Shown piece after piece: positions 1,173 to 11,024 of a DNA stretch of 11,645 nt. The stretch lies in IMG/VR virus record IMGVR_UViG_3300013103_000848, positions 1 to 11,645 of that record; one strand, 5' to 3'. Position 1 is the first letter of the stretch. The number at the start of each line of letters is the position of its first letter. The notes beneath the pieces are model-generated. The model was not told where the DNA came from and ran no database searches. It saw nothing but the letters and a program-made list of their open reading frames with translations. The stretch is from a virus. The position numbers were made by a program, and so were the translations under genes.

Positions 1173-1185
1173 TTATTCTGTAATT

Positions 1186-1200
1186 AGAAAAGTTTATAAA
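1186..1200 (+). promoter_or_regulatory. Archaeal-type promoter candidate (purine-rich BRE-like agaaaag plus TATA box tttataaa) for the small-gene cluster
   Basis: agaaaag (1186-1192) directly abuts tttataaa (1193-1200). There are 24 nt between the box and the ATG at 1225. The architecture matches the boxes at 4013-4029 and 9711-9725. Confidence 0.6.
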
Positions 1201-1203
1201 GGC

Positions 1204-1221
1204 GTATCTACTTGTATCTAC
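1204..1221. promoter_or_regulatory. Tandem direct repeat GTATCTAC-tt-GTATCTAC between the TATA box and the start codon; candidate operator
   Basis: Exact 8-mers at 1204-1211 and 1214-1221 with 10-bp periodicity. They cover the predicted transcription start region. Confidence 0.5.
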
Positions 1222-1224
1222 ACA

Positions 1225-1299
1225 ATGGAAACAGAATATTTTAAAGACGAACTAACATCTGAACAAGAAGATTTAGTTTTGTCAAGGGAGAATGAATAA
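1225..1299 (+). CDS. Possible leaderless 24-aa first cistron (METEYFKDELTSEQEDLVLSRENE)
   Basis: The ATG sits at the position expected for a leaderless start after the TATA box. A TAATG overlap couples it to the 1299 ORF. It is very short and could instead be a 5' leader carrying the GGGAG SD (1286-1290) of the next gene. Confidence 0.3.
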   Translation: METEYFKDELTSEQEDLVLSRENE

Positions 1300-1487
1300 T
1301 GGGAGAATACAAACACAGAGAATTCACAGCAAGAATGACTTATTATACTTGGTGTAAGTTAAGAAGACATTTTAAACCGCTGAACAGAAGTGAATCAGCA
1401 AGAAATTATTTTTTAAGATTAGCAAAATATCTTGAAGCAGAAAGCAAGCTTGATTTTAAATGGCCTAAAAGGGAGATGGATTTATGA
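1299..1487 (+). CDS. Small basic protein, possible ribbon-helix-helix DNA-binding protein, 62 aa
   Basis: An SD (gggag) lies 8 nt upstream. REFTARMTYYTW-CKLRRHFK-PLNRSES-ARNYFLRLAKYLE fits a strand-helix-turn-helix (RHH) pattern by eye only. Confidence 0.6.
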   Translation: MGEYKHREFTARMTYYTWCKLRRHFKPLNRSESARNYFLRLAKYLEAESKLDFKWPKREMDL

Positions 1488-1675
1488 ACTTAGAACAAAT
1501 AGAAAATCAGTATAGAATACTTGAAGATAGAAGAATCAGATTTAAAACTAAAAATTATAATTTGAGAGAAAGCACAGCATATTTTGAGGGATACACCGAC
1601 GCTATTATTTATGAAAATGAAATCGCAAAATTAAAATTAGAATCAATATTAAAAGAGGATTTGAAAAATGAGTGA
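1484..1675 (+). CDS. Hypothetical protein, 63 aa, predicted helical/coiled-coil
   Basis: It has an ATGA overlap with the upstream ORF and GGGAG 8 nt upstream. Composition is purine-rich and coding-like. Confidence 0.6.
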   Translation: MNLEQIENQYRILEDRRIRFKTKNYNLRESTAYFEGYTDAIIYENEIAKLKLESILKEDLKNE

Positions 1676-1853
1676 ATTACAAGGAGACGCAGGAGACGAA
1701 GAAAGAGTTAAACTAAACTTAATTGAAGCAGCTGCAGAACAAGGAACTTTAAAAAGAACAGAAACTAAAGATGAAATCAGATTTGAGGGAATGATTGTAG
1801 TTAAAGATTTGAAAGGAGGTAAGACAAATGAGGATGGATTTAAAAACACTTGA
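1668..1853 (+). CDS. Hypothetical acidic protein, 61 aa
   Basis: It has an 8-nt ATGAGTGA overlap with the upstream ORF and AGAGGA about 9 nt upstream. Its 3' end overlaps the SD-preceded ORF at 1828 by 26 nt. Confidence 0.5.
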   Translation: MSELQGDAGDEERVKLNLIEAAAEQGTLKRTETKDEIRFEGMIVVKDLKGGKTNEDGFKNT

Positions 1854-1950
1854 AGCAGTAAACGAACTAGTGCATAGACAAAAAGTAGAACCAGATGAGA
1901 TTTTTATAGAGAATGATAAAAGCATTTGTTTAGTATGGAAAAATGAGTAA
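1828..1950 (+). CDS. Hypothetical protein, 40 aa (below the ORF-track cutoff)
   Basis: A strong SD aggaggt (1814-1820) lies 7 nt upstream of the ATG. Translation: MRMDLKTLEAVNELVHRQKVEPDEIFIENDKSICLVWKNE. An 8-nt ATGAGTAA overlap joins it to ORF 1943. Confidence 0.5.
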   Translation: MRMDLKTLEAVNELVHRQKVEPDEIFIENDKSICLVWKNE

Positions 1951-2299
1951 AGTAACAGCAATATGCCAGATGTGCGGGAAGCAGTTTGAATATGATTTAA
2001 AACCCGGCTTTCCAAGAAAATATTGTCCTGAATGTAGTGCTAAAAAGAAAGCAGAATATGAGAGCAGACAGCAAAAAGAAGCACCGGTCCCAGTAGTTAG
2101 GCCGGGTGAGATTGCTAAAAAAGAAGAAGTTAAGAAAGAAATAGCTGAAGATGTTGTCATAAGAAAAGACAAACCGCATTCATATGAATTCGGAAAAGCA
2201 GGAAACAGATTCAAGGTTTATTTTAACACAGCAGAGGAATTAAAAACTTTAATTAAGGAATTGTTAGAAGTTCAGGATGAGATGTTTCCTTTAGAATAA
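1943..2299 (+). CDS. Zinc-ribbon protein, 118 aa (N-terminal CxxC...CxxC finger, Lys/Glu-rich linker, C-terminal domain)
   Basis: It carries CQMCGKQFEY...YCPECS, a four-Cys motif. It is followed by a T7 run. Confidence 0.7.
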   Translation: MSKVTAICQMCGKQFEYDLKPGFPRKYCPECSAKKKAEYESRQQKEAPVPVVRPGEIAKKEEVKKEIAEDVVIRKDKPHSYEFGKAGNRFKVYFNTAEELKTLIKELLEVQDEMFPLE

Positions 2300-2302
2300 T
2301 TA

Positions 2303-2309
2303 TTTTTTT
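2303..2309 (+). terminator. Oligo-T tract (T7) immediately after the stop of ORF 1943..2299; candidate archaeal-type terminator
   Basis: tatttttttg at 2301-2310. Oligo-T tracts are the known archaeal termination signal. Its function here is inferred. Confidence 0.35.
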
Positions 2310-2378
2310 GCCCGAATGTTTGTCGGGTTTCATAGTCAGCGTGCGGGTTGGACTGACAAACCCTTAACGAGACCCGCA
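2310..2378 (+). other. GC-enriched structured intergenic element (multiple mutually exclusive or pseudoknot-compatible stems)
   Basis: Stem cccga (2311-2315)/tcggg (2323-2327). Stem gtcag (2335-2339)/ctgac (2353-2357). Stem tgcgggt (2342-2348)/acccgca (2372-2378). About 56% GC by hand count, in an AT-rich genome. Confidence 0.4.
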
Positions 2379-2391
2379 TTATAATCAAAAA

Positions 2392-2709
2392 ATGAAAAAA
2401 GAAAAAACTTTAAGTGAGAAAAAATGTAATATTCTAACTTTAGAACAATTAGGGGGTATTGGATTATCTTCAAGTGACATTGAGTTAGCAGATGGAACTA
2501 TTTATGGTAAAGAAATTTTTTTTCATCATGGTGAAAATCTTATTTTTAAAAAAGGGTTTTTTGAAGAAGATGTAAAACAAACTTTCAAAAAGATTTTAGA
2601 TGAGATTGAGAAATTAGGAAATATGAGACTATATAGAAGTAAAAGTTGTCAATTATTCAGCAGAAGAATTAAACAAACAATCAAACAAAAAGCAGGAGAT
2701 TTAAAATGA
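2392..2709 (+). CDS. Hypothetical protein, 105 aa
   Basis: ORF-track ORF on the coding strand with no recognisable motif. Its N-terminus MKKEKTLSEK resembles that of the next ORF. Confidence 0.6.
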   Translation: MKKEKTLSEKKCNILTLEQLGGIGLSSSDIELADGTIYGKEIFFHHGENLIFKKGFFEEDVKQTFKKILDEIEKLGNMRLYRSKSCQLFSRRIKQTIKQKAGDLK

Positions 2710-2882
2710 AAAACCAAGAAACTTTAAGTGAGAAAAGTATGACATCTGAAGAAGAATACATCACACCCGAAACAGTGTGGAAAGAAATCTGTAAATTATA
2801 CATTAAATTCACTGATGAACTTGGAGAAAAAATATATGAATTTGATAGGATGATGAAATCTAACAATTCTTCCCAGCAATAA
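2706..2882 (+). CDS. Hypothetical protein, 58 aa (below the ORF-track cutoff)
   Basis: It has an ATGA overlap with the upstream ORF, and AGGAG (2694-2698) lies 7 nt upstream. Translation: MKNQETLSEKSMTSEEEYITPETVWKEICKLYIKFTDELGEKIYEFDRMMKSNNSSQQ. Confidence 0.55.
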   Translation: MKNQETLSEKSMTSEEEYITPETVWKEICKLYIKFTDELGEKIYEFDRMMKSNNSSQQ

Positions 2883-3147
2883 CTTTTTTAACTTTATTTC
2901 TTAAACAACGAGGGCATATCCATTTTTCATCAGGATAAAGCCAAATCAATCCATTTTGATTTTCTGCTGTTGCTTTTCTTAATTCTCTACCGCAAATATC
3001 ACATTTATCAGACAACTCAACAGCAAACTCAACAATGCCTAATCTATCTTTTATTGCATTCTCTAAAATCTCAGAAATATTCACTTCTTTCTCTTTTATC
3101 TTATTATGCAATTCAGAATCTATTGAAGTCATCACCTGTTTTTTCAT
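2860..3147 (-). CDS. Ribbon-helix-helix plus zinc-ribbon transcription regulator candidate, 95 aa; the only minus-strand gene
   Basis: The N-terminus VMTSIDSELHNKIKEKEVNISEILENAIKDRLG fits a CopG/Arc-type RHH pattern. The C-terminus CDICG...CPRC is a four-Cys ribbon. The gene is divergent from the large non-coding region and has its own TATA box. Confidence 0.75.
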   Translation of the reverse strand: MKKQVMTSIDSELHNKIKEKEVNISEILENAIKDRLGIVEFAVELSDKCDICGRELRKATAENQNGLIWLYPDEKWICPRCLRNKVKKVIAGKNC

Positions 3148-3168
3148 ATCAAATAGAAATATATATAC

Positions 3169-3176
3169 TTTATAAA
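3169..3176 (-). promoter_or_regulatory. TATA box (palindromic tttataaa) for the minus-strand regulator gene
   Basis: There are 21 nt between the box and the ATG at 3147 on the minus strand. This matches the spacing class of the + strand promoters. Confidence 0.5.
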
Positions 3177-3226
3177 TATATGTGTTCTGGACAATCTATA
3201 TTTTAAAATTGTCTATCTGGGTTTTG

Positions 3227-3325
3227 ATATATATATATATATGAATATGCATATATATAATAGCCCCCCCACTACGGAGTTATTCTGATTATATATATCT
3301 CTGGAAATATATATATATATATATA
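3227..3325. repeat. Cluster of four (AT)n dinucleotide tracts interrupted by a C7 run; candidate DNA unwinding element
   Basis: (AT)8 at 3227-3242, atatatata at 3251-3259, C7 at 3264-3270, (AT)4 at 3291-3298, and a 19-nt AT alternation at 3307-3325. Confidence 0.9.
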
Positions 3326-3330
3326 AATTC

Positions 3331-3345
3331 GCTTAACCCTTAAGC
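3331..3345. repeat. Short inverted repeat gcttaa-ccc-ttaagc
   Basis: A 6-bp stem with a 3-nt loop, read directly. Confidence 0.6.
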
Positions 3346-3489
3346 CAGGACTTTAAACACCTTTGAAAGCCTCACATAACACTCGGAAGCGTAAATACTA
3401 TTAGATGCTTGACAATTCAAAAAAACTTGATTGCCTATAACTTAAAATTGCCTTTCATTTAAATAATTGTGTTATTACTAGAAAGTGTT

Positions 3490-3505
3490 CCGCTCTCTGG
3501 AGCGG
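3490..3505. repeat. Hairpin ccgctc-tctg-gagcgg
   Basis: A GC-rich 6-bp stem with a 4-nt loop in the gene-free region. Confidence 0.6.
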
Positions 3506-3520
3506 TGCTTTATGGCTTTT

Positions 3521-3535
3521 AGAAAGATTTAAATA
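3521..3535 (+). promoter_or_regulatory. Orphan promoter-like element (agaaaga plus tttaaata) with no ORF downstream
   Basis: It has the same BRE-like purine stretch plus TATA box as the three + strand gene promoters. The 12-mer atttaaataatt occurs at 3467-3478 and 3527-3538. No ATG lies at the expected +1 (about 3558). Confidence 0.4.
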
Positions 3536-3547
3536 ATTCATTCACTT

Positions 3548-3569
3548 GCTTTTTTGCTTGCAAAAAAGC
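3548..3569. repeat. Perfect 9-bp hairpin gcttttttg-cttg-caaaaaagc
   Basis: 3548-3556 pairs with 3561-3569, leaving a 4-nt loop. Confidence 0.8.
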
Positions 3570-3670
3570 CTTCTTCTCATTCCTCTCTTCATCTAAAAGA
3601 CCATAAAGATAAGGGAAATAACAGAAAGAAGAATTGATTATCGGGTGAATTTTGACTTTTTTAGCCAAAA

Positions 3671-3688
3671 TGGGCAAGGTTTTGCCCA
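3671..3688. repeat. Perfect 7-bp hairpin tgggcaa-ggtt-ttgccca
   Basis: 3671-3677 pairs with 3682-3688, leaving a 4-nt loop. Confidence 0.8.
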
Positions 3689-3784
3689 CTCCTCTTCTTT
3701 CGGAGTTCTACCCTCTAATCAATATTGATCATTCTCTAGAATGACTTATTAATTCAAACCAATTCACATCGGTTTATTTCCTAA

Positions 3785-3860
3785 GAACTTCCCCCAACCC
3801 CCTAACCCCCTTCCCCGTGGGAAGGGGGAACTTCCCTCCACCCTCCCCGCCCACCACCCC
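3785..3860. repeat. C-rich (+ strand) / G-rich (- strand) island with two G-quadruplex/i-motif-capable tract clusters, flanked by a 9-nt direct repeat
   Basis: Cluster A: C5-aa-C5-taa-C5-tt-C4 at 3791-3816. Cluster B: C3-t-cc-a-C3-t-C4-g-C3-a-cc-a-C4 at 3834-3860. The 9-mer gaacttccc occurs at 3785-3793 and 3828-3836. Confidence 0.85.
3806..3828. repeat. Perfect 10-bp GC-rich hairpin/dyad cccccttccc-cgt-gggaaggggg
   Basis: 3806-3815 is the exact reverse complement of 3819-3828, with a 3-nt spacer. It is embedded in the C-rich island. Confidence 0.9.
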
Positions 3861-4012
3861 TTTTCTTATTCTTCTTATCTCTTCTTTGCGATTGTTGGAG
3901 TTTTTCTTTTTTTTTTATGTAGGAACCCGCAAAAAAATTTTTTAAAAATATTTTTTCTCTCCGTCATTCTTCAGGGTTCAAAAATATTTCCCAATCCTTA
4001 AATTATCCCCAT

Positions 4013-4029
4013 AGAAAAATCTTTAAATA
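4013..4029 (+). promoter_or_regulatory. Archaeal-type promoter candidate (agaaaaatc plus tttaaata) for the terminase-to-scaffold operon
   Basis: The TATA box lies at 4022-4029, with 19 nt to the terminase ATG at 4049. No SD is present between them. Confidence 0.6.
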
Positions 4030-4048
4030 CTCAGCTACTCTCTTACTT

Positions 4049-5359
4049 ATGAAATATGATATTACCCAGCCATGGAAAACTCTTGACAAATGGCAAAAGG
4101 ACTATATCAATACCCCGCCAGAACAAGACTGCTTTCTTCTAACTGGACGACAATCAGGAAAAACCGCCGCAATGTCCATAAAAATTGTAGAAATGTGTGT
4201 TCACCATTTCAAAAAAGAACAAAATATCTTAATCTGCTCAATCACAGAAAAACAAGCTTATAGAATGCTTGCAAAAGCTCTTGTTTATGCAAAGATAAAA
4301 TATCCAAAATTTGTAATCACAAAAGGCAAAGACAAACCAACCAAACACATAATCAAATTCACAACAGGAGCAGGTATTTACTCCTACGCCGCGGGAGAAT
4401 CAGGCGAAGGATTAAGAGGAGACACAATAAAAAAATTAATGATTGATGAAGGTTCTGGAATGAGCGAAGAATTTTTTGTGGCAACTACCCCTATGTTATC
4501 TGTATCAGGGGGAAGTATGGACATAGCCAGCACTCCAAGAGGAAAATATGACAAAGAAGGAAACGAACTATTTTTTTATAAATGTTCAAAAGATAAAAAT
4601 TTTAAAAAGTTTTATGTCTCTGCTGAGGATTGTCCAAGACACTCAAAAGAATTTCTGCAAAGACAAAAAGAGAGATTTACAAAACTGCAATACGCACAAG
4701 AATATCTGGCACAATTTTTAGATGAAGTTCAATCTTTTTTTGATCTTGACTTAATTAAAAAACTCTGCGTTGAAAAAGTCCCAAAAGAAATAATAACATC
4801 TGGAGATAATTTTATCGGCTGTGATGTTGCCAGAAAAGGAATAGATAAATTCACTTATGAAATCTTTAACAGAACAGGACACAGAGGAAATTACAAATTA
4901 AGACATGTTTTTAATCTCACAACTAACAATATTCCAATTCCAGAAAGCGTAAGAAAAATTATCTCTCTAAATAAATCCTACAACTTTAAAAAAGAATACA
5001 TTGACAGCGGGGGAATGGGAATAGCTGTTTGCGACTTGCTCCGTGAAGATAAAGCAAATAAAAATAAAGTTGTTGAAATAAATAACTCTTCAAGAAGATA
5101 TACAGAAGACGGAGAAAAAAAGAAAACAGGAATTTTAAAAGAGGACTTATATAAAAATCTCGCTGTTCTTATGGAACAAAATAAAATTACTTTTTTGGAT
5201 GATGACGAAGTAAAGAGTTCTTTATCTTCAATCCAATACGAATACAACTCATCAGGACGCTTAATAATCTGGGGTTATAACGACCATATCGCAGAGGGCA
5301 TTGTCAGAGCGGCCTGGTGCATAAAAGACAAAAGTTTAAATATCCTTGCTTTTTGTTAA
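4049..5359 (+). CDS. terL: Terminase large subunit (ATPase plus RNase-H-like nuclease), 436 aa
   Basis: Walker A is GRQSGKT (aa 33-39, nt 4145-4165) and Walker B-like is KKLMIDEGS. Nuclease-domain acidic motifs are FIGCDVARKGIDKFT, YIDSGGMGIAVCDLL and YNDHIAEGIVRAAW. The size and motif order are typical of TerL. Confidence 0.9.
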   Translation: MKYDITQPWKTLDKWQKDYINTPPEQDCFLLTGRQSGKTAAMSIKIVEMCVHHFKKEQNILICSITEKQAYRMLAKALVYAKIKYPKFVITKGKDKPTKHIIKFTTGAGIYSYAAGESGEGLRGDTIKKLMIDEGSGMSEEFFVATTPMLSVSGGSMDIASTPRGKYDKEGNELFFYKCSKDKNFKKFYVSAEDCPRHSKEFLQRQKERFTKLQYAQEYLAQFLDEVQSFFDLDLIKKLCVEKVPKEIITSGDNFIGCDVARKGIDKFTYEIFNRTGHRGNYKLRHVFNLTTNNIPIPESVRKIISLNKSYNFKKEYIDSGGMGIAVCDLLREDKANKNKVVEINNSSRRYTEDGEKKKTGILKEDLYKNLAVLMEQNKITFLDDDEVKSSLSSIQYEYNSSGRLIIWGYNDHIAEGIVRAAWCIKDKSLNILAFC

Positions 5360-5437
5360 TAACATGTTAAGAAAAATCTATATAGCATACTTAAAGATGA
5401 TAATTAAACTCTTGAGCGGCAAAGCAGCAGTAATATA

Positions 5438-5803
5438 ATGACAGACACAGGAATATTTGCAACAACAGAAGAAGTCCAGAGAAAAGCTGGAGCAAACGCA
5501 AACGCAACAGCGAAGTCAGAAGCATACATTAATGACTTCATAGCACAAGCAGAAAGTACGATTAATGTTATGTGCAGATATAATTTTTCTGATAAGTTCT
5601 CAACTTTAAACACAGATGTAAAACAAATTCTCAAAGAAGTTGCTTCAAACCTCGCTGCAATCTATGTAATTAACTATGATATGTCTGGTTTTACTTCAAG
5701 AACTGAAGCAGAAAACATGATTAATATTCTCAGAGATGCCTCATTAAGAGGACTTTCAATATTAAGAAATCAACAAGCGGTGACTTTTATAAATGGCGCA
5801 TGA
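5438..5803 (+). CDS. Possible head-tail adaptor/connector (gp6-like), 121 aa
   Basis: Its size and N-terminal pattern (TTEEVQRKAG...SEAYINDFIAQAESTIN) resemble gp6/gp15-type head completion proteins. This call rests on position and pattern only. Confidence 0.45.
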   Translation: MTDTGIFATTEEVQRKAGANANATAKSEAYINDFIAQAESTINVMCRYNFSDKFSTLNTDVKQILKEVASNLAAIYVINYDMSGFTSRTEAENMINILRDASLRGLSILRNQQAVTFINGA

Positions 5804-6221
5804 TTTTAAAAGATTTCCAGAACTGACAAACTCACAAATGCAATTCTATTATTTTGACAGCCCACACCAGCAAATCACAGAAAGTTTTAGGGCAAGAGTT
5901 GTCAAAGTCATAGATGGCGACACAATAAGGGTAACCTGCGATTTTAGGGATTTTGCTTTTCCAATCCGACTGATAGAAATAAACGCCCCTGAAATGAACG
6001 AAGGCGGACAGGAAAGTAAATCATGGCTTGAAAATCAAATAATAGGCGAAGATATAGATGTAATTGTAGACCCAAACTTTAGAGTGGGAAAATGGGGGCG
6101 ATTATTAGGGAGGATTATCAGCAGAGGACTTGACATGGGAGAGGCAAGCATGCGTTTAGGTTTCTCAACAAAATTCGGAGAAAGAAATTTTGAACAGGAG
6201 ATGAAAAGAATATGGTATTAA
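5793..6221 (+). CDS. Staphylococcal nuclease (SNase/thermonuclease) homolog, 142 aa
   Basis: VVKVIDGDTIRV ... IRLIEINAPE ... WGRLLGRI matches the SNase DGDT / RL-x-x-[DN]-A-P-E / GRxL motif order. Asn replaces the usual Asp of the D-[AT]-P-E motif. Confidence 0.8.
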   Translation: MAHDFKRFPELTNSQMQFYYFDSPHQQITESFRARVVKVIDGDTIRVTCDFRDFAFPIRLIEINAPEMNEGGQESKSWLENQIIGEDIDVIVDPNFRVGKWGRLLGRIISRGLDMGEASMRLGFSTKFGERNFEQEMKRIWY

Positions 6222-6628
6222 ATTTTGGGTTTTTAAAAAGAAGTGTTGAAGAAGCATTATCTCCAAGCAAAGACGCATTAACTAATGACTGGCAATGGAT
6301 AGTAGATAATGGAACTTTAAAATTACTGGATGGGGAGGTAACTAATGGAACAACCACACTTTACACCGTGCCTGCAGGAAAAATATTTTATATGATTTCT
6401 ATGAATTTATCTTCAAAAGAAACAAATTCTTCAACAGGAGCGGTAAACGGAAAAGCTGCGGGAATTGTTTTTATTGCGAATGTTCTTCAAGCGAATGATA
6501 CATTTAATTATTCTGGCTCTTTTCCTATTCCTATAAAACTAACAGCAGGACAAACTATTCAAGTTATATCATATGGAGCAAATATTTATGGAGCATTAAG
6601 AGTCCAAGGATACGAGGTAAGTGCATGA
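6212..6628 (+). CDS. Hypothetical beta-rich protein, 138 aa (possible small structural or receptor-binding protein)
   Basis: ORF-track ORF with AGGAG (6196-6200) upstream and a 10-nt overlap with the nuclease gene. The alternating hydrophobic pattern (TLYTVPAGKIFYMISMNL, GQTIQVISYG, GALRVQGYEV) suggests a beta-sandwich or cupin-like fold. Confidence 0.6.
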   Translation: MVLNFGFLKRSVEEALSPSKDALTNDWQWIVDNGTLKLLDGEVTNGTTTLYTVPAGKIFYMISMNLSSKETNSSTGAVNGKAAGIVFIANVLQANDTFNYSGSFPIPIKLTAGQTIQVISYGANIYGALRVQGYEVSA

Positions 6629-6646
6629 AAATTAAAAATATAGAAA

Positions 6647-7741
6647 ATGACAGAAAATAAAATAGATAGTGCAATTGCAAGCGACTTAACAAACGCTATG
6701 ACAGACTTCTCAGTGGATAGTGCAACAACCGACGCTAACACAAACCAAAAAGAAACCTCATGGATGGACACAAATTTTCCAAAATATCTTGGATACTACA
6801 AAGATGAGAAAACTCCTGAACTAACTGCAGTCATTGACGCCAAGGCAACATGGACTATCGGAAAGGGCTATAAAGCAGATGAAGAGACAACAATGCTTTT
6901 AGATACAATCAAAGGAAACGGAAAAGATACATTCAACACAATATTAGAGAACGCAATGAGAGTAATGCTGTTGGGCGGAAACTTCTACGCTCATATTATA
7001 AGAGATGATGAAGGGAATCTTATTAATCTAAAACCATTAGACCCGTCGGTGATGAAACATATTTTTGGAAGAGATGGAATGCTCATCAGGTTTGAACAAG
7101 TTTCCAAATTTCCAGGAAACAAACCGAAGAAGTTTGAGCCAGAAGAAATATTTTATCTTTCAAGAAATCGGATAGCTGATGAGATGCACGGGACAGGAAT
7201 AGCCCAGAAATTAAAATTAATTATTGATATGAAGAATGAGGCAATGGCAGACCAGAGAAAAGCGTTACACTGGAATGTCATACCCCGTTGGAAATTCAAG
7301 TTAAAAACAGACGACCCGACAGAAATCGCAGCTTACAAAGCAAAGCAGGACGCAGCAACAGGAACAGGAGAAAATATCTATGAGCCGTTTGATGTTTCTG
7401 AAAGCGAATTAATTTCAGTAGCCCCGAACGCAACATTAAACCCTATGGCATGGATACAATATTTAGACAATTTGTTTTATGAAATGGCAGGAGTCCCTAA
7501 AATCATTCTCGGGGGTTCAGGAGAATTTACAGAGGCATCAGCAAAAATTGCTTATCTTGCTTTTCAGCAGGGAGTTGAGGAAGAACAACTTTTTATAGAA
7601 GAACAGGTTCTGGCACAATTAAATCTTTTGATAGAATTAGAGTTTCCAGCGTCACTGGAGAACGACCTTTTATCTGATAATAAAAAAGATGGCGCTCAAA
7701 ATATAGATGCAAGTGAAACTACTGCAGGGGAGGGACAATGA
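6647..7741 (+). CDS. Portal protein, 364 aa
   Basis: Its size and position lie between TerL and the scaffold/capsid genes. The segments TFNTILENAMRVMLLGGNFYAHIIRDDEGNLINLKPLDP and later helix-rich regions resemble Phage_portal family architecture. An in-frame stop lies immediately upstream of the ATG. Confidence 0.7.
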   Translation: MTENKIDSAIASDLTNAMTDFSVDSATTDANTNQKETSWMDTNFPKYLGYYKDEKTPELTAVIDAKATWTIGKGYKADEETTMLLDTIKGNGKDTFNTILENAMRVMLLGGNFYAHIIRDDEGNLINLKPLDPSVMKHIFGRDGMLIRFEQVSKFPGNKPKKFEPEEIFYLSRNRIADEMHGTGIAQKLKLIIDMKNEAMADQRKALHWNVIPRWKFKLKTDDPTEIAAYKAKQDAATGTGENIYEPFDVSESELISVAPNATLNPMAWIQYLDNLFYEMAGVPKIILGGSGEFTEASAKIAYLAFQQGVEEEQLFIEEQVLAQLNLLIELEFPASLENDLLSDNKKDGAQNIDASETTAGEGQ

Positions 7742-8910
7742 CCGTTTATTCAACATATATAGGAAAAGGAAAGGACAGAAAGATTTTAACAAAAAGAAAA
7801 AAAAAGAACACTGGGAAAGAGTTAAGAGATAGAATAGAAAGAGCCAAAGCAGAGGGCTGGGACCCTGACCCTAAAAAAGACACACAAAAAGAAAGAAAAA
7901 GAGAAACAGAAAGAACCCAACCAACAGTCAATATCAACAAAAGAGAAACAGAAAGACCCCCAAGAGTAGAATCTAAAACCGCTCCTGTTGTTAAATTAAC
8001 TCCAAAACCAAAAGAAAAAACAGGACTGGCAAAGTTAAGAGAAGAAGATTCTATCAAAGGAGGACTTATCAGAGCTGCGACAGACTGGAGAACAACAGTC
8101 GCTCTCGTCGGAACACTCGCTACTCTTGGAATTGGCTCAGCAGTTATTGCAGGAGCAGAAGCATCAGCAAGCGCAGGAGCAACAGCAGTAATAACAAGAA
8201 CAGGAACCGCTATCTCAGGAGGAATGAAAGGCGTTACTATGACAACACAAAGAGCATTTATCGGGAGAGCCGCAACTTCAGGAGTTAACAAAATCTTTTA
8301 TGCAGTCAGACCAGTCGCCACAAGATTTGCGACAAATCCAAAATCAACAGCTTTAACAACAAAATTATTTTTAAAGGCAGGGTTAAATACTGGAACAGCA
8401 GGGATTTTATTGGGAGCAATCGGCTCTTATCCATTTGCAGGGTTCATCAAAGAAGAAGCACTACAAACTTTAGGTTTTGCTTTCTCATCAGCAGAGAAGA
8501 TAAATGATATTGAAGGAATGGAAATGGTTACAGAAGAAATAGATGAAATCTTAAATGTTGCTCCAAGTATTTTAGATAAAATCCCGTATGTAAATGTTTT
8601 AAAGCAATTAAACGAATTTTTTAAAGCTGTTGCAGTGAAACAAATTCAGAACAAAAGAACCATAGAAGAAGCAAAAAGAGATATAGAAGGTGAAGGAGAA
8701 TTTGAAACTTCATTTGAAAAATCAGCGAGGGAAAGTGCAGAAAGAGAAGAAAAACAAAGAAAAGAAAGTGAAGAATATTACTCAAGAATTGAAGAAGAAA
8801 ACCGTAAAAAAGAGTTAGAAGAAATGGCTTGGAAATCAGAATATTTTAATTTGATAAGAGAGAAGAAATTTAAGGAAGCAGAAGAACTCCTTAAGGAGAA
8901 AATGAAATAA
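7738..8910 (+). CDS. Tripartite virion-associated protein candidate, 390 aa: basic N-terminus, Gly/Ala/Thr-rich hydrophobic centre, Glu/Lys coiled-coil C-terminus
   Basis: It has an ATGA overlap with the portal gene and a strong SD ggggaggg at 7727-7735. KRETER occurs twice, from an 18-nt direct repeat at 7897-7914 and 7939-7956. Hydrophobic stretches are TTVALVGTLATLGIGSAVIAGA and GTAGILLGAIGSYPFAGFI. No protease motif was recognised. Confidence 0.7.
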   Translation: MTVYSTYIGKGKDRKILTKRKKKNTGKELRDRIERAKAEGWDPDPKKDTQKERKRETERTQPTVNINKRETERPPRVESKTAPVVKLTPKPKEKTGLAKLREEDSIKGGLIRAATDWRTTVALVGTLATLGIGSAVIAGAEASASAGATAVITRTGTAISGGMKGVTMTTQRAFIGRAATSGVNKIFYAVRPVATRFATNPKSTALTTKLFLKAGLNTGTAGILLGAIGSYPFAGFIKEEALQTLGFAFSSAEKINDIEGMEMVTEEIDEILNVAPSILDKIPYVNVLKQLNEFFKAVAVKQIQNKRTIEEAKRDIEGEGEFETSFEKSARESAEREEKQRKESEEYYSRIEEENRKKELEEMAWKSEYFNLIREKKFKEAEELLKEKMK

Positions 8911-9086
8911 TGACATCAAAAAAAAAAGTGGATTGGAAGGTGCTGTGTACAGGATTAGTTTGCATAACCGCCTTAGAAGCTTTTGCCCTAAGTTTAGGTT
9001 TCAACGGGACAATGCTAAAAACCGTTTTGGTTATTATAGCATTAGCAATCGGAATATCAATCCCTACACCGACGATAAAACACTGA
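8910..9086 (+). CDS. Small membrane protein with two predicted TM helices, 58 aa (below the ORF-track cutoff)
   Basis: It has a TAATG overlap, and AAGGAG (8893-8898) lies upstream. Translation: MTSKKKVDWKVLCTGLVCITALEAFALSLGFNGTMLKTVLVIIALAIGISIPTPTIKH. Confidence 0.55.
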   Translation: MTSKKKVDWKVLCTGLVCITALEAFALSLGFNGTMLKTVLVIIALAIGISIPTPTIKH

Positions 9087-9095
9087 AATATTAAA

Positions 9096-9164
9096 ATGGA
9101 ACTCTGGGAGTTAATCATCTGGTTAATAATCGCAGGAGTAGTCGTAGTTGCGATTTTATACTGA
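9096..9164 (+). CDS. Possible 22-aa single-TM peptide (MELWELIIWLIIAGVVVVAILY)
   Basis: It fills the gap between two genes on the coding strand and is strongly hydrophobic. It has no SD and is very short. Confidence 0.3.
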   Translation: MELWELIIWLIIAGVVVVAILY

Positions 9165-9179
9165 AAGGAGGTAAATAAA

Positions 9180-9521
9180 ATGAGTGAAGAACCACAAGAA
9201 GAAACTAAGAGGAAAGAAGTTCAAGAAGGAACGCAGGAAAAGGAAGTTCAGGGAAAAGATAATTCTTCAGACAGGATTTCCGACGGAGTGGCGACAACAA
9301 CACCGCTTATTGAAAACGCCCGTGAGGAAAGAGAAAAGCTGGAAAAAGTCGTTAAAGAACTCAAAGCTGAGAATGACAGACGAGAGTTAATAATGGCAAA
9401 GCAAGCATTAGGCGGACGAAGTGAAGCAGGACAAGAGTTAGTGAAGAAAGAAGAAACTGACAAAGAATATTCTGAAAGAATAGACAGGGAAATCCGAGAG
9501 GGAAAAACAGAATTTAATTAA
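9180..9521 (+). CDS. Scaffolding-protein candidate, 113 aa, highly charged and helical
   Basis: The best SD in the window (aggaggt, 9166-9172) lies 7 nt upstream. The protein is Glu/Lys/Arg-rich with coiled-coil character (REEREKLEKVVKELKAENDRRE). It lies just upstream of the decoration and capsid genes. Confidence 0.55.
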   Translation: MSEEPQEETKRKEVQEGTQEKEVQGKDNSSDRISDGVATTTPLIENAREEREKLEKVVKELKAENDRRELIMAKQALGGRSEAGQELVKKEETDKEYSERIDREIREGKTEFN

Positions 9522-9522
9522 G

Positions 9523-9693
9523 ATGGTAAAATCAAAGGATGGAAAAATTGAAGTTATCTCAAGAGAAGAGGATTATCTTAGAAAGGCATTGGAAAGAACA
9601 AAGGATTTAATCTTTCAATCAGAACAAAATCTTATCATTAATAAGGAGATGGTTAGGATTCTTGAGAAAAAAATAAAAGAATTTTCAAAGTAA
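9523..9693 (+). CDS. Hypothetical helical protein, 56 aa (below the ORF-track cutoff)
   Basis: Hand translation: MVKSKDGKIEVISREEDYLRKALERTKDLIFQSEQNLIINKEMVRILEKKIKEFSK. It starts 2 nt after the upstream stop and fills otherwise empty coding-strand space. Confidence 0.45.
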   Translation: MVKSKDGKIEVISREEDYLRKALERTKDLIFQSEQNLIINKEMVRILEKKIKEFSK

Positions 9694-9705
9694 TCGGTAT
9701 ACCGA
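9694..9705. promoter_or_regulatory. Perfect 12-nt palindrome TCGGTATACCGA just upstream of the capsid-operon promoter; candidate regulator site
   Basis: Read directly. It ends 5 nt before the BRE-like agaaaca at 9711. Confidence 0.45.
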
Positions 9706-9710
9706 ATAAC

Positions 9711-9725
9711 AGAAACATTTAAATA
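9711..9725 (+). promoter_or_regulatory. Archaeal-type promoter candidate (agaaaca plus tttaaata) for the decoration/capsid/fibre operon
   Basis: The TATA box lies at 9718-9725, with 22 nt to the ATG at 9748. The intervening sequence is T-rich and has no SD. Confidence 0.6.
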
Positions 9726-9747
9726 CTTTATTTTTTATTATTTATCT

Positions 9748-10158
9748 ATGGCAGACGAAGCAATCCTAAGGCTTGAAACAAGACAACCAATTAGTTTCAA
9801 TAAAGCCTCTGCAACTGCATTTGAAAAGGGTGCTTTTGTAGATTTAAATGATGATTTAACAGCTGTCGCTGCAACAGCAGACGGGCATGTTGGCGGAATT
9901 GTCGCTGTTGAAGAAGTGGCAAACCAGCACAGCACTGTGGCTGTTTATCGTGAGGGCTTTTTCTATGGAACAGCGTCGGCAGCAATTACTATCGGACAAA
10001 CTCTTGCTTTAACAGGCTCAGGGAATAAACTTAAACCATCTACTGCCTCAGATGTAGCAAGCAAAACCGTAGGCATAGCATTAGAAGCAGCAAGCGGTAA
10101 TGGCGAGCAATTCTTATTTGAACTAAAACCAGGCGTGGGAGTTAACGCATTCGCATAA
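9748..10158 (+). CDS. Head decoration / capsid cement protein candidate (DUF2190-like), 136 aa
   Basis: It is a Gly/Ala/Val-rich beta protein (GAFVDLNDD, GHVGGIVAVEE, VAVYREGFFYG, GQTLALTGSGNKL, VGIALEAASGNGEQFLFEL). It lies immediately upstream of, and is translationally coupled (TAATG) to, the capsid gene, the usual arrangement for DUF2190-type decoration proteins. Confidence 0.6.
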   Translation: MADEAILRLETRQPISFNKASATAFEKGAFVDLNDDLTAVAATADGHVGGIVAVEEVANQHSTVAVYREGFFYGTASAAITIGQTLALTGSGNKLKPSTASDVASKTVGIALEAASGNGEQFLFELKPGVGVNAFA

Positions 10159-11024
10159 TGGCAGATACAGCAGGACAAGCACTAATAAGAGGGATTAACC
10201 TTGATAAGAAAGCAAGAAACTATCAGAATGAAGAATCTATTTTTTACAAGGAAGTTAATGTTAGTGTATCCTCATCAAGAGAAATACGATATTATCAAAA
10301 AACATCAGGATATTTAACTGCAACTTCTCCAGCGAGCATTGTAATCGCAGAGGGTGCTTTGCCTTTTGTTTTAGAAACTTCTTGGACAAGAAACACAGCT
10401 TACACAAAAAAGTATTCTGTTGATAGCCCTTTAATTACTGTGGAAGATGAGAAAGACAGCGAAGTTAGGGTATTTATGGATAATCTTGAGGAAATTACTG
10501 GAGCTGTTGTTAATGAAAGAGAGGGAGACATCTGGGATGTAGCAACAGAAGACCAGACACCAGTTAATATTAATTCTGTAACTTCTACTGCTGCGTGGGA
10601 TGCAGCCTCAGGGCAGGACCCTATGGAAGATGTAGCTGAAGCAGTGCAAAAGATTAGAGAACAAACTAAAAGGAAAGTTGTAAATCCTAAATTATATGTT
10701 TCTGCAAAAGGAGAAAAAGATTTAAAGGTTTGGATTACTTCAATGAAAGGAAGTTCTTGGAGTGAATTAGCTTCTAAAGTAGTTGTGGATGGAGTTTTGA
10801 CACGATTTGGCGGATGTTCTGTTGTAGTTTCTGAAAATGTAACTGCTGATTATGCTCTTGTTGCGGACTTGAAAAAATCTACTGAATACTGGGAGTTCTT
10901 TCCTTTGAAAACTGCAATAATCACAGAAGAATTAATCGGAAGAAAAATAAGAGTGATGACAAACGGAATTGCAGTTTTAACAAGACCAAAATTCAACTGC
11001 TTGATTACAAACACAGAGGCATAA
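10158..11024 (+). CDS. Major capsid protein, HK97-fold candidate, 288 aa
   Basis: It follows the scaffold and decoration genes. The segment TAAWDAASGQDPMEDVAEAVQKIREQT...NPKLYVSAKGEKDL resembles the conserved W-x-(n)-P-[IM]-x-D and following helix region of HK97/lambda-E-type capsid proteins. The call was made by eye. Confidence 0.75.
   Translation: MADTAGQALIRGINLDKKARNYQNEESIFYKEVNVSVSSSREIRYYQKTSGYLTATSPASIVIAEGALPFVLETSWTRNTAYTKKYSVDSPLITVEDEKDSEVRVFMDNLEEITGAVVNEREGDIWDVATEDQTPVNINSVTSTAAWDAASGQDPMEDVAEAVQKIREQTKRKVVNPKLYVSAKGEKDLKVWITSMKGSSWSELASKVVVDGVLTRFGGCSVVVSENVTADYALVADLKKSTEYWEFFPLKTAIITEELIGRKIRVMTNGIAVLTRPKFNCLITNTEA

Follow-up and report, generated by a model that had tools for sequence, protein, structure and literature searches.

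The window analysed here is the whole 11,645-nt stretch of the viral record IMGVR_UViG_3300013103_000848, in which A/T-rich boxes, each an 8-bp TATA-like element with a usually A-rich stretch directly upstream, stand 19–24 nt ahead of the ATG codons of first cistrons. These boxes are probably archaeal promoters, which would be recognized by the TATA-binding protein (TBP) and transcription factor B (TFB) and would drive leaderless first cistrons, hence placing the host of this virus among the Archaea. The assignment of the host relies on two features taken together, i.e., the promoter grammar is archaeal, and a virus without an RNA polymerase gene must employ the machinery of its host; searches of the window's open reading frames (ORFs) with Pfam, NCBIfam, and PHROGs detected neither an RNA polymerase gene nor a sigma-like one. 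Since the first and last 105 bases of the window are identical (a terminal direct repeat), it represents a genome that is complete, circularly permuted, and 11,540 bp long, with a G+C content of 35% and nearly all genes on the plus strand.

Five boxes in the window lead an ATG (1225, 3147, 4049, 5364, and 9748), and none of these five ATGs is preceded by a Shine–Dalgarno (SD) sequence. Four of them had been described in the initial annotation and were recovered at exactly the coordinates it gave, and its statement that no SD sequence lies between box and ATG holds as well, with no core of 4 nt or more in any gap. The scores given below were obtained with a position weight matrix (PWM) that was trained on relatives only and then applied to the window. 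The promoter of the early unit (1184–1200, plus strand, 10.5 bits) consists of the BRE-like stretch ttagaaaag (1184–1192), i.e., a putative B recognition element, and the TATA box TTTATAAA (1193–1200); the core originally reported, AGAAAAG-TTTATAAA, occupies 1186–1200 and ends 24 nt before the ATG at 1225. The promoter of the large terminase (TerL) gene, agaaaaatc (AGAAAAATC, 4013–4021) followed by TTTAAATA (4022–4029), scores 14.3 bits on the plus strand, and the complete element AGAAAAATC-TTTAAATA (4013–4029) leaves 19 nt to the ATG at 4049. The late (capsid) promoter, acagaaaca (9709–9717, plus strand) plus TTTAAATA (9718–9725), is the top site of the window with 22.8 bits; its core AGAAACA-TTTAAATA (9711–9725) lies 22 nt from the ATG at 9748. 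On the minus strand, the promoter of the divergent regulator (3169–3185, 11.8 bits) carries TTTATAAA at 3176–3169, exactly 21 nt ahead of the ATG at 3147. Its upstream stretch acacatata (3185–3177) is a weak BRE (cacatata), and the gene that it leads, 2860–3147, has an SD length of 0.

The fifth box lies within the 3′ end of the TerL gene, where agacaaaag (5326–5334) and TTTAAATA (5335–5342) form a plus-strand connector promoter of 17.9 bits, with the ATG at 5364 exactly 21 nt on. It had been listed among the occurrences that might reflect chance, as had the box at 3528, which lacks an ATG and scores 18.1 bits; the former is in fact the promoter that the family conserves most widely. Two of the listed positions were moreover wrong, 3468 and 5336 being really 3458 and 5335. 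The division of the genome into four transcription units has to be revised likewise: the four boxes exist, but at least five units are present, because the box at 5335–5342 splits TerL from the connector–portal block. A second candidate box in the same region, AGAAAAATC-TATATAGC at 5370–5386, was dropped, as its score is under 10 bits and its distance to an ATG at 5397 is 10 nt.

The number of boxes exceeds what A/T-rich sequence would yield by chance; a frequency explained by chance was what the initial annotation had named as speaking against its proposal. Eight ATGs of the window have an intergenic gap before them, i.e., belong to first cistrons; five of these have a box 19–24 nt upstream, and among 200,000 shuffles of those upstream regions, the maximum was 3 boxed ATGs, with none at all in 94.6% of the shuffles. 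In the window, the PWM recognizes 7 sites at 10 bits or more versus 1.1 expected and 5 sites at 14 bits or more versus 0.12 expected.

The same arrangement recurs throughout a family of small relatives. The protein collection contained 937 homologues of TerL and 446 of the capsid protein; the 120 listed for TerL all reside on contigs of at most 12.7 kb, and the 120 listed for the capsid protein all on contigs of at most 13 kb. About 100 related loci were fetched, and 96 of them, along with the window, were used to count distances from box to ATG without gene calls. The TerL strand carries 325 distinct TTTAWATA boxes, of which 145 are followed by an ATG exactly 21 nt past the box and 29 by one 22 nt past it, while the remaining offsets have a mean of about 6 and the opposite strand displays no peak. 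With gene starts from a simple ORF caller, TTTA[AT]A[AT]A occurs 76 times at 21 nt, 15 times at 22 nt, and 0–5 times elsewhere. Furthermore, an unbiased positional scan of 6-mers upstream of 1,174 genes returned TTTAAA, TTAAAT, and TAAATA at 23, 22, and 21 nt, respectively, as its top words (p ~1e-100). A fixed distance of 19–24 nt, as proposed initially, is thus correct for the range of the four gaps reported at the time, but the mode in the family is 21–22 nt, and 19 and 24 nt are off it. The sequences of the spacers have diverged with their length kept, which implies a constraint on the distance itself. Equivalent single-genome counts on SIRV2, SSV1, Streptococcus phage C1, and Mycoplasma phage P1 as controls involved too few boxes to reveal a peak or to rule one out.

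Throughout the family, the conserved boxes mark the same boundaries between modules. In the relatives, a box leads 44 of 108 genes of the merged connector/SNase cluster, 32 of 44 cement genes, 24 of 70 portal genes, and 21 small early genes, with only 3 of 80 TerL genes and 1 of 46 major capsid protein (MCP) genes led in this way. In the closest TerL relatives, the box stands 21 nt ahead of the first gene of the TerL operon, and in the two relatives in which, as in the window, TerL is a first cistron, the gap is 21 nt. The loci L098–L103, which were outside the training set of the PWM, contain 3–5 sites apiece, mostly with an ATG at 21 ± 1 nt and at the same gene boundaries.

A logo of 123 aligned sites with 21-nt spacing, in which the distance to the ATG served as the proxy for the start site (A of ATG = +1), resolves the parts of the element. 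The BRE extends from −36 to −30, with A at −34 in 107, at −33 in 107, and at −32 in 119 of the 123 sites (87–97%), in addition to A at −36 in 83 sites and C or G at −35. The TATA box TTTAAATA occupies −29 to −22 and is followed by a T-rich stretch; a T is present at −10 in 84 of the 123 (68%), a pyrimidine at −11 in 102, and C or T at −1 in 108 (88%). In the published archaeal layout, TATA lies near −27, the BRE near −33, a promoter-proximal element rich in A/T near −10, and at −1 a pyrimidine (PMC5316973). As far as aligned positions can tell, the logo matches this layout.

Translation signals partition accordingly between the two classes of genes. SD sequences of at least 5 nt precede 6 of 160 box-led genes (4%) as opposed to 239 of 1,014 other genes (24%), and the codon located 21 nt past the box is ATG in 152 cases, GTG in 4, TTG in 4, and CTG in 1; both the lack of SD sequences and the preference for ATG are as expected for leaderless mRNAs. 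In the window, all five box-led genes start with ATG. The proposal that internal genes are SD-led or overlap with their neighbours is true of most of them, which have SD cores of 4–7 nt or TAATG/ATGA junctions, but genes 2392 and 6647 have neither. Altogether, the interpretation offered in the initial annotation, i.e., archaeal BRE/TATA promoters with leaderless first cistrons and SD-led internal ones, is supported by all of the sequence tests that were run.

In the proposed mechanism, TFB would recognize the A-rich BRE, which directly abuts the 8-bp TATA box recognized by TBP, and the RNA polymerase of the host would start about 22 nt past the box, on the A of the ATG or within 1–3 nt of it. 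The resulting mRNA would be leaderless, with the first cistron translated from its 5′-terminal AUG via the leaderless pathway, which needs no SD sequence, and later cistrons translated via SD sites or the stop–start overlaps TAATG and ATGA. Such use of host machinery would be required by the lack of a viral RNA polymerase gene. At least five units are predicted: an early unit from 1225 on; the ribbon-helix-helix (RHH) regulator from 3147 on the minus strand; TerL from 4049; a unit from 5364 on, extending from the connector to the portal and beyond; and a unit from 9748 on that would comprise the cement, capsid, and LamG fibre genes and cross the circular junction. In the early unit, a start 22 nt past the box at 1193–1200 would fall on A1222, with a C before it, leaving a 5′ untranslated region of 3 nt that would be leaderless in practice.

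Comparable arrangements have been mapped in an archaeal virus. In the GenBank record of SSV1, the mapped starts of transcripts T3, T4, and T9 precede the first cistron's ATG by 1 nt, and the end of the 8-bp box is 21, 20, and 23 nt, respectively, ahead of this ATG, like the spacing of the family; the TTTAAA/TTTATA "box A" of SSV1 lies 21–24 nt ahead of the mapped start, and the T6 box is exactly TTTAAATA, with GTAAAG before it. The resemblance is confined to promoters, since SSV1 is a spindle-shaped crenarchaeal virus without terminase, portal, or HK97 capsid and has no sequence relationship to the window; additionally, the BRE of the window family is more A-rich and regular than that of SSV1, and its spacing is tighter (21–22 nt). 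Cellular archaeal leaderless promoters (GeneMarkS-2 group D; Thermococcus, Haloferax, and Sulfolobus) are likewise similar, with TATA at about −26/−27, BRE at about −33, an A/T element at about −10, a pyrimidine–purine start, and AUG on leaderless genes along with SD sequences on other genes. The distance between the box and leaderless starts is ~22–26 nt in archaea and 6–8 nt in bacteria (PMC6028130). In comparison with the cellular promoters, the signals of the family are read from sequence alone, and the TATA centre, at −25.5 from the ATG, falls on the short side of the published range.

Several observations weigh against this interpretation. The site counts of the family are not independent events because many of the sites are orthologous, and the predicted start-site positions derive from the box-to-ATG spacing alone. 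Two of the spacings in the window, 19 nt for TerL and 24 nt for 1225, correspond to background-level offsets in the family. For TerL, the rule of 22 nt would place the start on G4051, with loss of the AUG, so that transcription would have to start 2 nt nearer to the box or TBP would have to bind in a different register; the ATG at 4049 itself is the true start of TerL, since the N-terminus MKYDI is conserved among homologues. Oligo-T terminators are just mildly enriched upstream of the promoters, where the density of T-runs is 2–5 times that of coding sequence, but A-runs rise too. Furthermore, the evidence from metagenomic bins is mixed, with one homologue labelled Nealsonbacteria, and one relative encodes the resolvase RusA, which is known chiefly from bacteria and phages.

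The last two points would favour a bacterial host, e.g., an ultrasmall member of Patescibacteria or the candidate phyla radiation (CPR), in which the box would serve as an unusual −10, UP-like, or phage-factor element, and short A/U-rich leaders would be translated without SD sequences. We consider this improbable. The GTDB bins that contain whole small contigs of relatives bear the names Woesearchaeota (the closest, with 60% TerL identity), Staskawiczbacteria, Patescibacteria, Spirochaetales, and Actinomycetota, that is, four unrelated bacterial groups and an archaeon, yet all of the contigs share one and the same box–21–ATG grammar, so the labels cannot all be right. The binned contigs (L030–L036 and P0052) are not flanked by host genes, and the labels likely reflect composition-based mis-binning of small viral contigs. 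Bins, cluster names, and source names were, therefore, rejected as evidence on the host in either direction, the labels being contradictory or empty. No integrated copy was seen among the listed contigs of relatives, all of which are at most 13 kb.

The position of the box is also difficult to reconcile with bacterial transcription. Bacterial leaderless genes (GeneMarkS-2 group C; Actinobacteria and Deinococcus–Thermus) resemble those of the window in that the first cistron lacks an SD sequence and its start codon is at the 5′ end of the mRNA; however, their −10 box lies 6–8 nt from the start as opposed to 21–22 nt for the box in the family, which agrees with the earlier argument that a bacterial −10 would sit much nearer to the start. 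A −10 element at the position of the box would generate a leader of 12–16 nt without an SD sequence, although the same genomes use strong SD sequences on internal genes, and such a leader would need no nucleotide-exact spacing. As a −10 hexamer, TAAATA would lack the T at position 6. A perfect TATAAT does occur at 2380–2385, 6 nt ahead of the ATG at 2392, but TATAAT located 4–9 nt before the start is found in only 8 of 315 first genes of the family, and the positional 6-mer scan contains no such signal. Sigma-70-like sites are not enriched (43, with 34.2 ± 5.7 expected from shuffles), and the starts of units have none. Intrinsic (hairpin-plus-T) terminators show no excess either, with 8 versus 6.1 ± 2.7 in shuffles. 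As aforementioned, the ORFs of the window yielded neither a sigma gene nor an RNA polymerase gene.

Alternatively, the box could be the operator of a virus-encoded regulator, such as the RHH protein, rather than a core promoter, and the fixed distance to the ATG would then reflect translational or transcriptional control by this regulator. An RHH protein is indeed encoded in the genome, and conserved palindromes adjoin one of the promoters. However, the box itself has no palindromic context, being A-rich on one side and T-rich on the other, and it is unchanged in relatives whose TerL is merely 34–47% identical, whereas just 3 homologues of the RHH protein could be detected, none of them named. 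Moreover, the motif equals the generic archaeal BRE/TATA consensus. The operator explanation is considered even less probable than a bacterial host. That the boxes are chance A/T words of an A/T-rich genome (35% G+C), with 17 plus-strand occurrences of TTTAWAWA, many of them within genes, is practically negligible, given that the observed count was not attained in any shuffle of the upstream regions and that the 21-nt peak of the family (p ~1e-100) has no counterpart on the opposite strand.

With archaeal promoters retained as the preferred explanation, homology offers some indication of the kind of virus and host involved. The genome encodes a predicted large terminase, portal, and HK97-fold capsid protein, by which it is assigned to the HK97-type viruses of Caudoviricetes. 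Among 50,697 records of phages and archaeal viruses, the isolate that TerL matches best is Halogranum tailed virus 1 (HGTV-1), a virus of haloarchaea (E = 7e-23, 24.6% identity), the best match to a bacterial phage having E = 1e-13; the portal and capsid proteins had no match in these records. Archaeal tailed viruses of haloarchaea and methanogens, including HGTV-1, share the HK97-type module of TerL, portal, connector, and capsid, but HGTV-1 measures 144 kb as compared with 11.5 kb for the window. DPANN archaea are a reasonable guess for the hosts because of the low G+C content and the apparent freshwater, marine, or sediment origin, as judged from the names of samples and records only. The complete viruses reported for DPANN are 41 kb (PMC11310336), far larger than this family of 11–13 kb. 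In size, it approaches the floor of tailed viruses, for which a Salmonella phage of 11.6 kb and the satellite P4 are cited (bioRxiv 10.1101/2025.06.18.659913). These smallest tailed phages, together with the 11.7-kb Mycoplasma phage P1, are similar to the window in having ~11.5–12 kb and a head–tail module; they differ in their bacterial hosts and promoters, and no sequence similarity to the window was found.

The connector promoter is embedded in a coding sequence. Its BRE/TATA is encoded by TerL codons 426–432 (K-D-K-S-L-N-I; 5324–5344), at the C-terminus of the protein. In 25 homologues, K428 and L430 of this tail are invariant and K426 is nearly so, which suggests that the promoter constrains the TerL tail, i.e., dual coding. 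Downstream of the promoter, a mini-ORF of 24 codons (5364–5438, plus strand) without an SD sequence leads by a TAATG junction onto the ATG of the connector gene (5438–5803). In relatives, the connector ATG itself stands 21 nt from the box, and in the window, the mini-ORF holds that place. The connector gene has no SD sequence; therefore, its translation may depend on termination–reinitiation. A second mini-ORF of 24 codons (1225–1299, plus strand), likewise without an SD sequence, opens the early unit as its first cistron and is connected by TAATG to the ATG of gene 1299–1487. The two mini-ORFs are unrelated to each other, and the start of each occupies the leaderless position behind a box.

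Directly upstream of the late promoter lies a palindrome, gtAATCGGTATACCGAATAAc (9691–9710), with the arms TTATTCGG and CCGAATAA and a variable 4-nt centre. The arms recur in about 30 relatives, mostly 3–13 nt ahead of the box of the cement promoter and in a few cases at other non-coding places; the palindrome is a candidate operator for the control of late genes. The promoter is followed by the gene of the cement/decoration protein (9748–10158, plus strand; Pfam Phage_cement_2), a candidate for leaderless translation, which is joined by TAATG to the MCP gene (10158–11024, plus strand), identified as a PHROG major head protein and through PF25209 in homologues that are 87–97% identical. Inside the capsid gene, an antisense BRE/TATA match of 15.4 bits (10726–10719, minus strand) has no ATG at leaderless distance and represents an antisense promoter or else the single match that chance would produce at this threshold.

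The box that lacks an ATG belongs to the non-coding stretch of 901 bp at 3148–4048. It consists of ttagaaaga followed by TTTAAATA (3519–3535, plus strand, with the TATA box at 3528–3535; 18.1 bits), with no ATG at 19–24 nt. T-runs are found downstream of it at 3899–3958, and RNA folding of 3557–3915 has z = −2.97; the box may thus drive a non-coding transcript that starts near 3557 and extends to these T-runs. The region additionally contains (TA)n tracts (~3229–3245 and 3291–3327), a C-rich tract, and a G–C hairpin (3806–3828). A non-coding region of 350–1,036 nt is present in most near-complete relatives, and about one-third of these include a box without an ATG. Possible roles of the region 3148–4048 are as a source of non-coding RNA, as an origin of replication, or as a packaging site. 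Searches of the window for tRNAs and Rfam families gave no match. A block at 3832–3954, which is CCACC-rich and continues with GCGATT, a T-run, and TATGTAGGA, is 75–79% identical to positions 239–353 of relative L036 and 814–888 of relative L038; this block is better conserved than the proteins, since TerL of L036 is only 34% identical to that of the window (~80% for L038).

The remaining genes with recognizable products are those of a LamG-domain protein, probably the fibre (59–838), and a Zn-ribbon protein (1943–2299), both on the plus strand and identified by library matches; the RHH protein of the CcdA/Arc type (2860–3147, minus strand; 95 aa with Cys pairs; Pfam CcdA, E = 1e-4; PHROG Arc-like repressor, E = 5e-4); and, on the plus strand, TerL (4049–5359; Pfam Terminase_6N), a gp6-like head–tail connector (5438–5803) and an SNase-like nuclease (5793–6221) with profile matches, and the portal (6647–7741; Pfam Phage_portal). 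The portal gene of the window has neither the box that precedes it in some relatives nor an SD sequence; an ORF of 11 codons with its own GAGGT SD sequence (6625–6660) overlaps its start. Gene 2392 is preceded by neither box nor SD sequence, and the TATAAT at 2380–2385 gives it a bacterial-leaderless-like layout, which is not family-wide. The 92-nt spacer in front of this gene (2300–2391) contains nested inverted repeats after a T7 run, with a fold of z = −1.2, which is not significant. No recognizable replication (polymerase), lysis, tail-tube, or integrase gene was found in the 11,540-bp genome. Likewise, searches of the window proteins and of 20 representatives of accessory-gene clusters from relatives with Pfam, NCBIfam, and PHROGs revealed no endolysin and no archaeal or bacterial hallmark gene; these searches gave little beyond a beta-helix, RusA, and a weak Arc-like match.

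BRE/TATA promoters with leaderless first cistrons are already well known in archaeal viruses. What appears to be new is the carrier, a large and widespread HK97-type family of 11–13 kb at the size floor of tailed viruses; no published description of this family was found in the literature, though an earlier one may exist. With moderate confidence, we propose that the window represents an undescribed, globally distributed family that infects archaea, plausibly ultrasmall DPANN (e.g., Woesearchaeales) of anoxic lakes, groundwater, and sediments. If so, its members would be the smallest archaeal head–tail viruses by a factor of at least two, and archaeal head–tail viruses would reach down to the size limit of tailed viruses (~11.5 kb). 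Their transcription programme would be readable from the sequence, including a promoter within the final seven codons of the terminase gene and leaderless mini-ORFs from which ribosomes pass on to genes without SD sequences. The box–21–ATG rule would serve as a transcription map and correct gene starts, including the 24-codon mini-ORFs missed by gene callers, and the constraint exerted by the promoter would account for the odd conserved KDKSLNI peptide at the terminase C-terminus. Promoter grammar is one of the few signals of the host domain within a viral genome itself; where it is as clean as in this family, it can assign uncultured viruses to the Archaea even though the labels from binning conflict.

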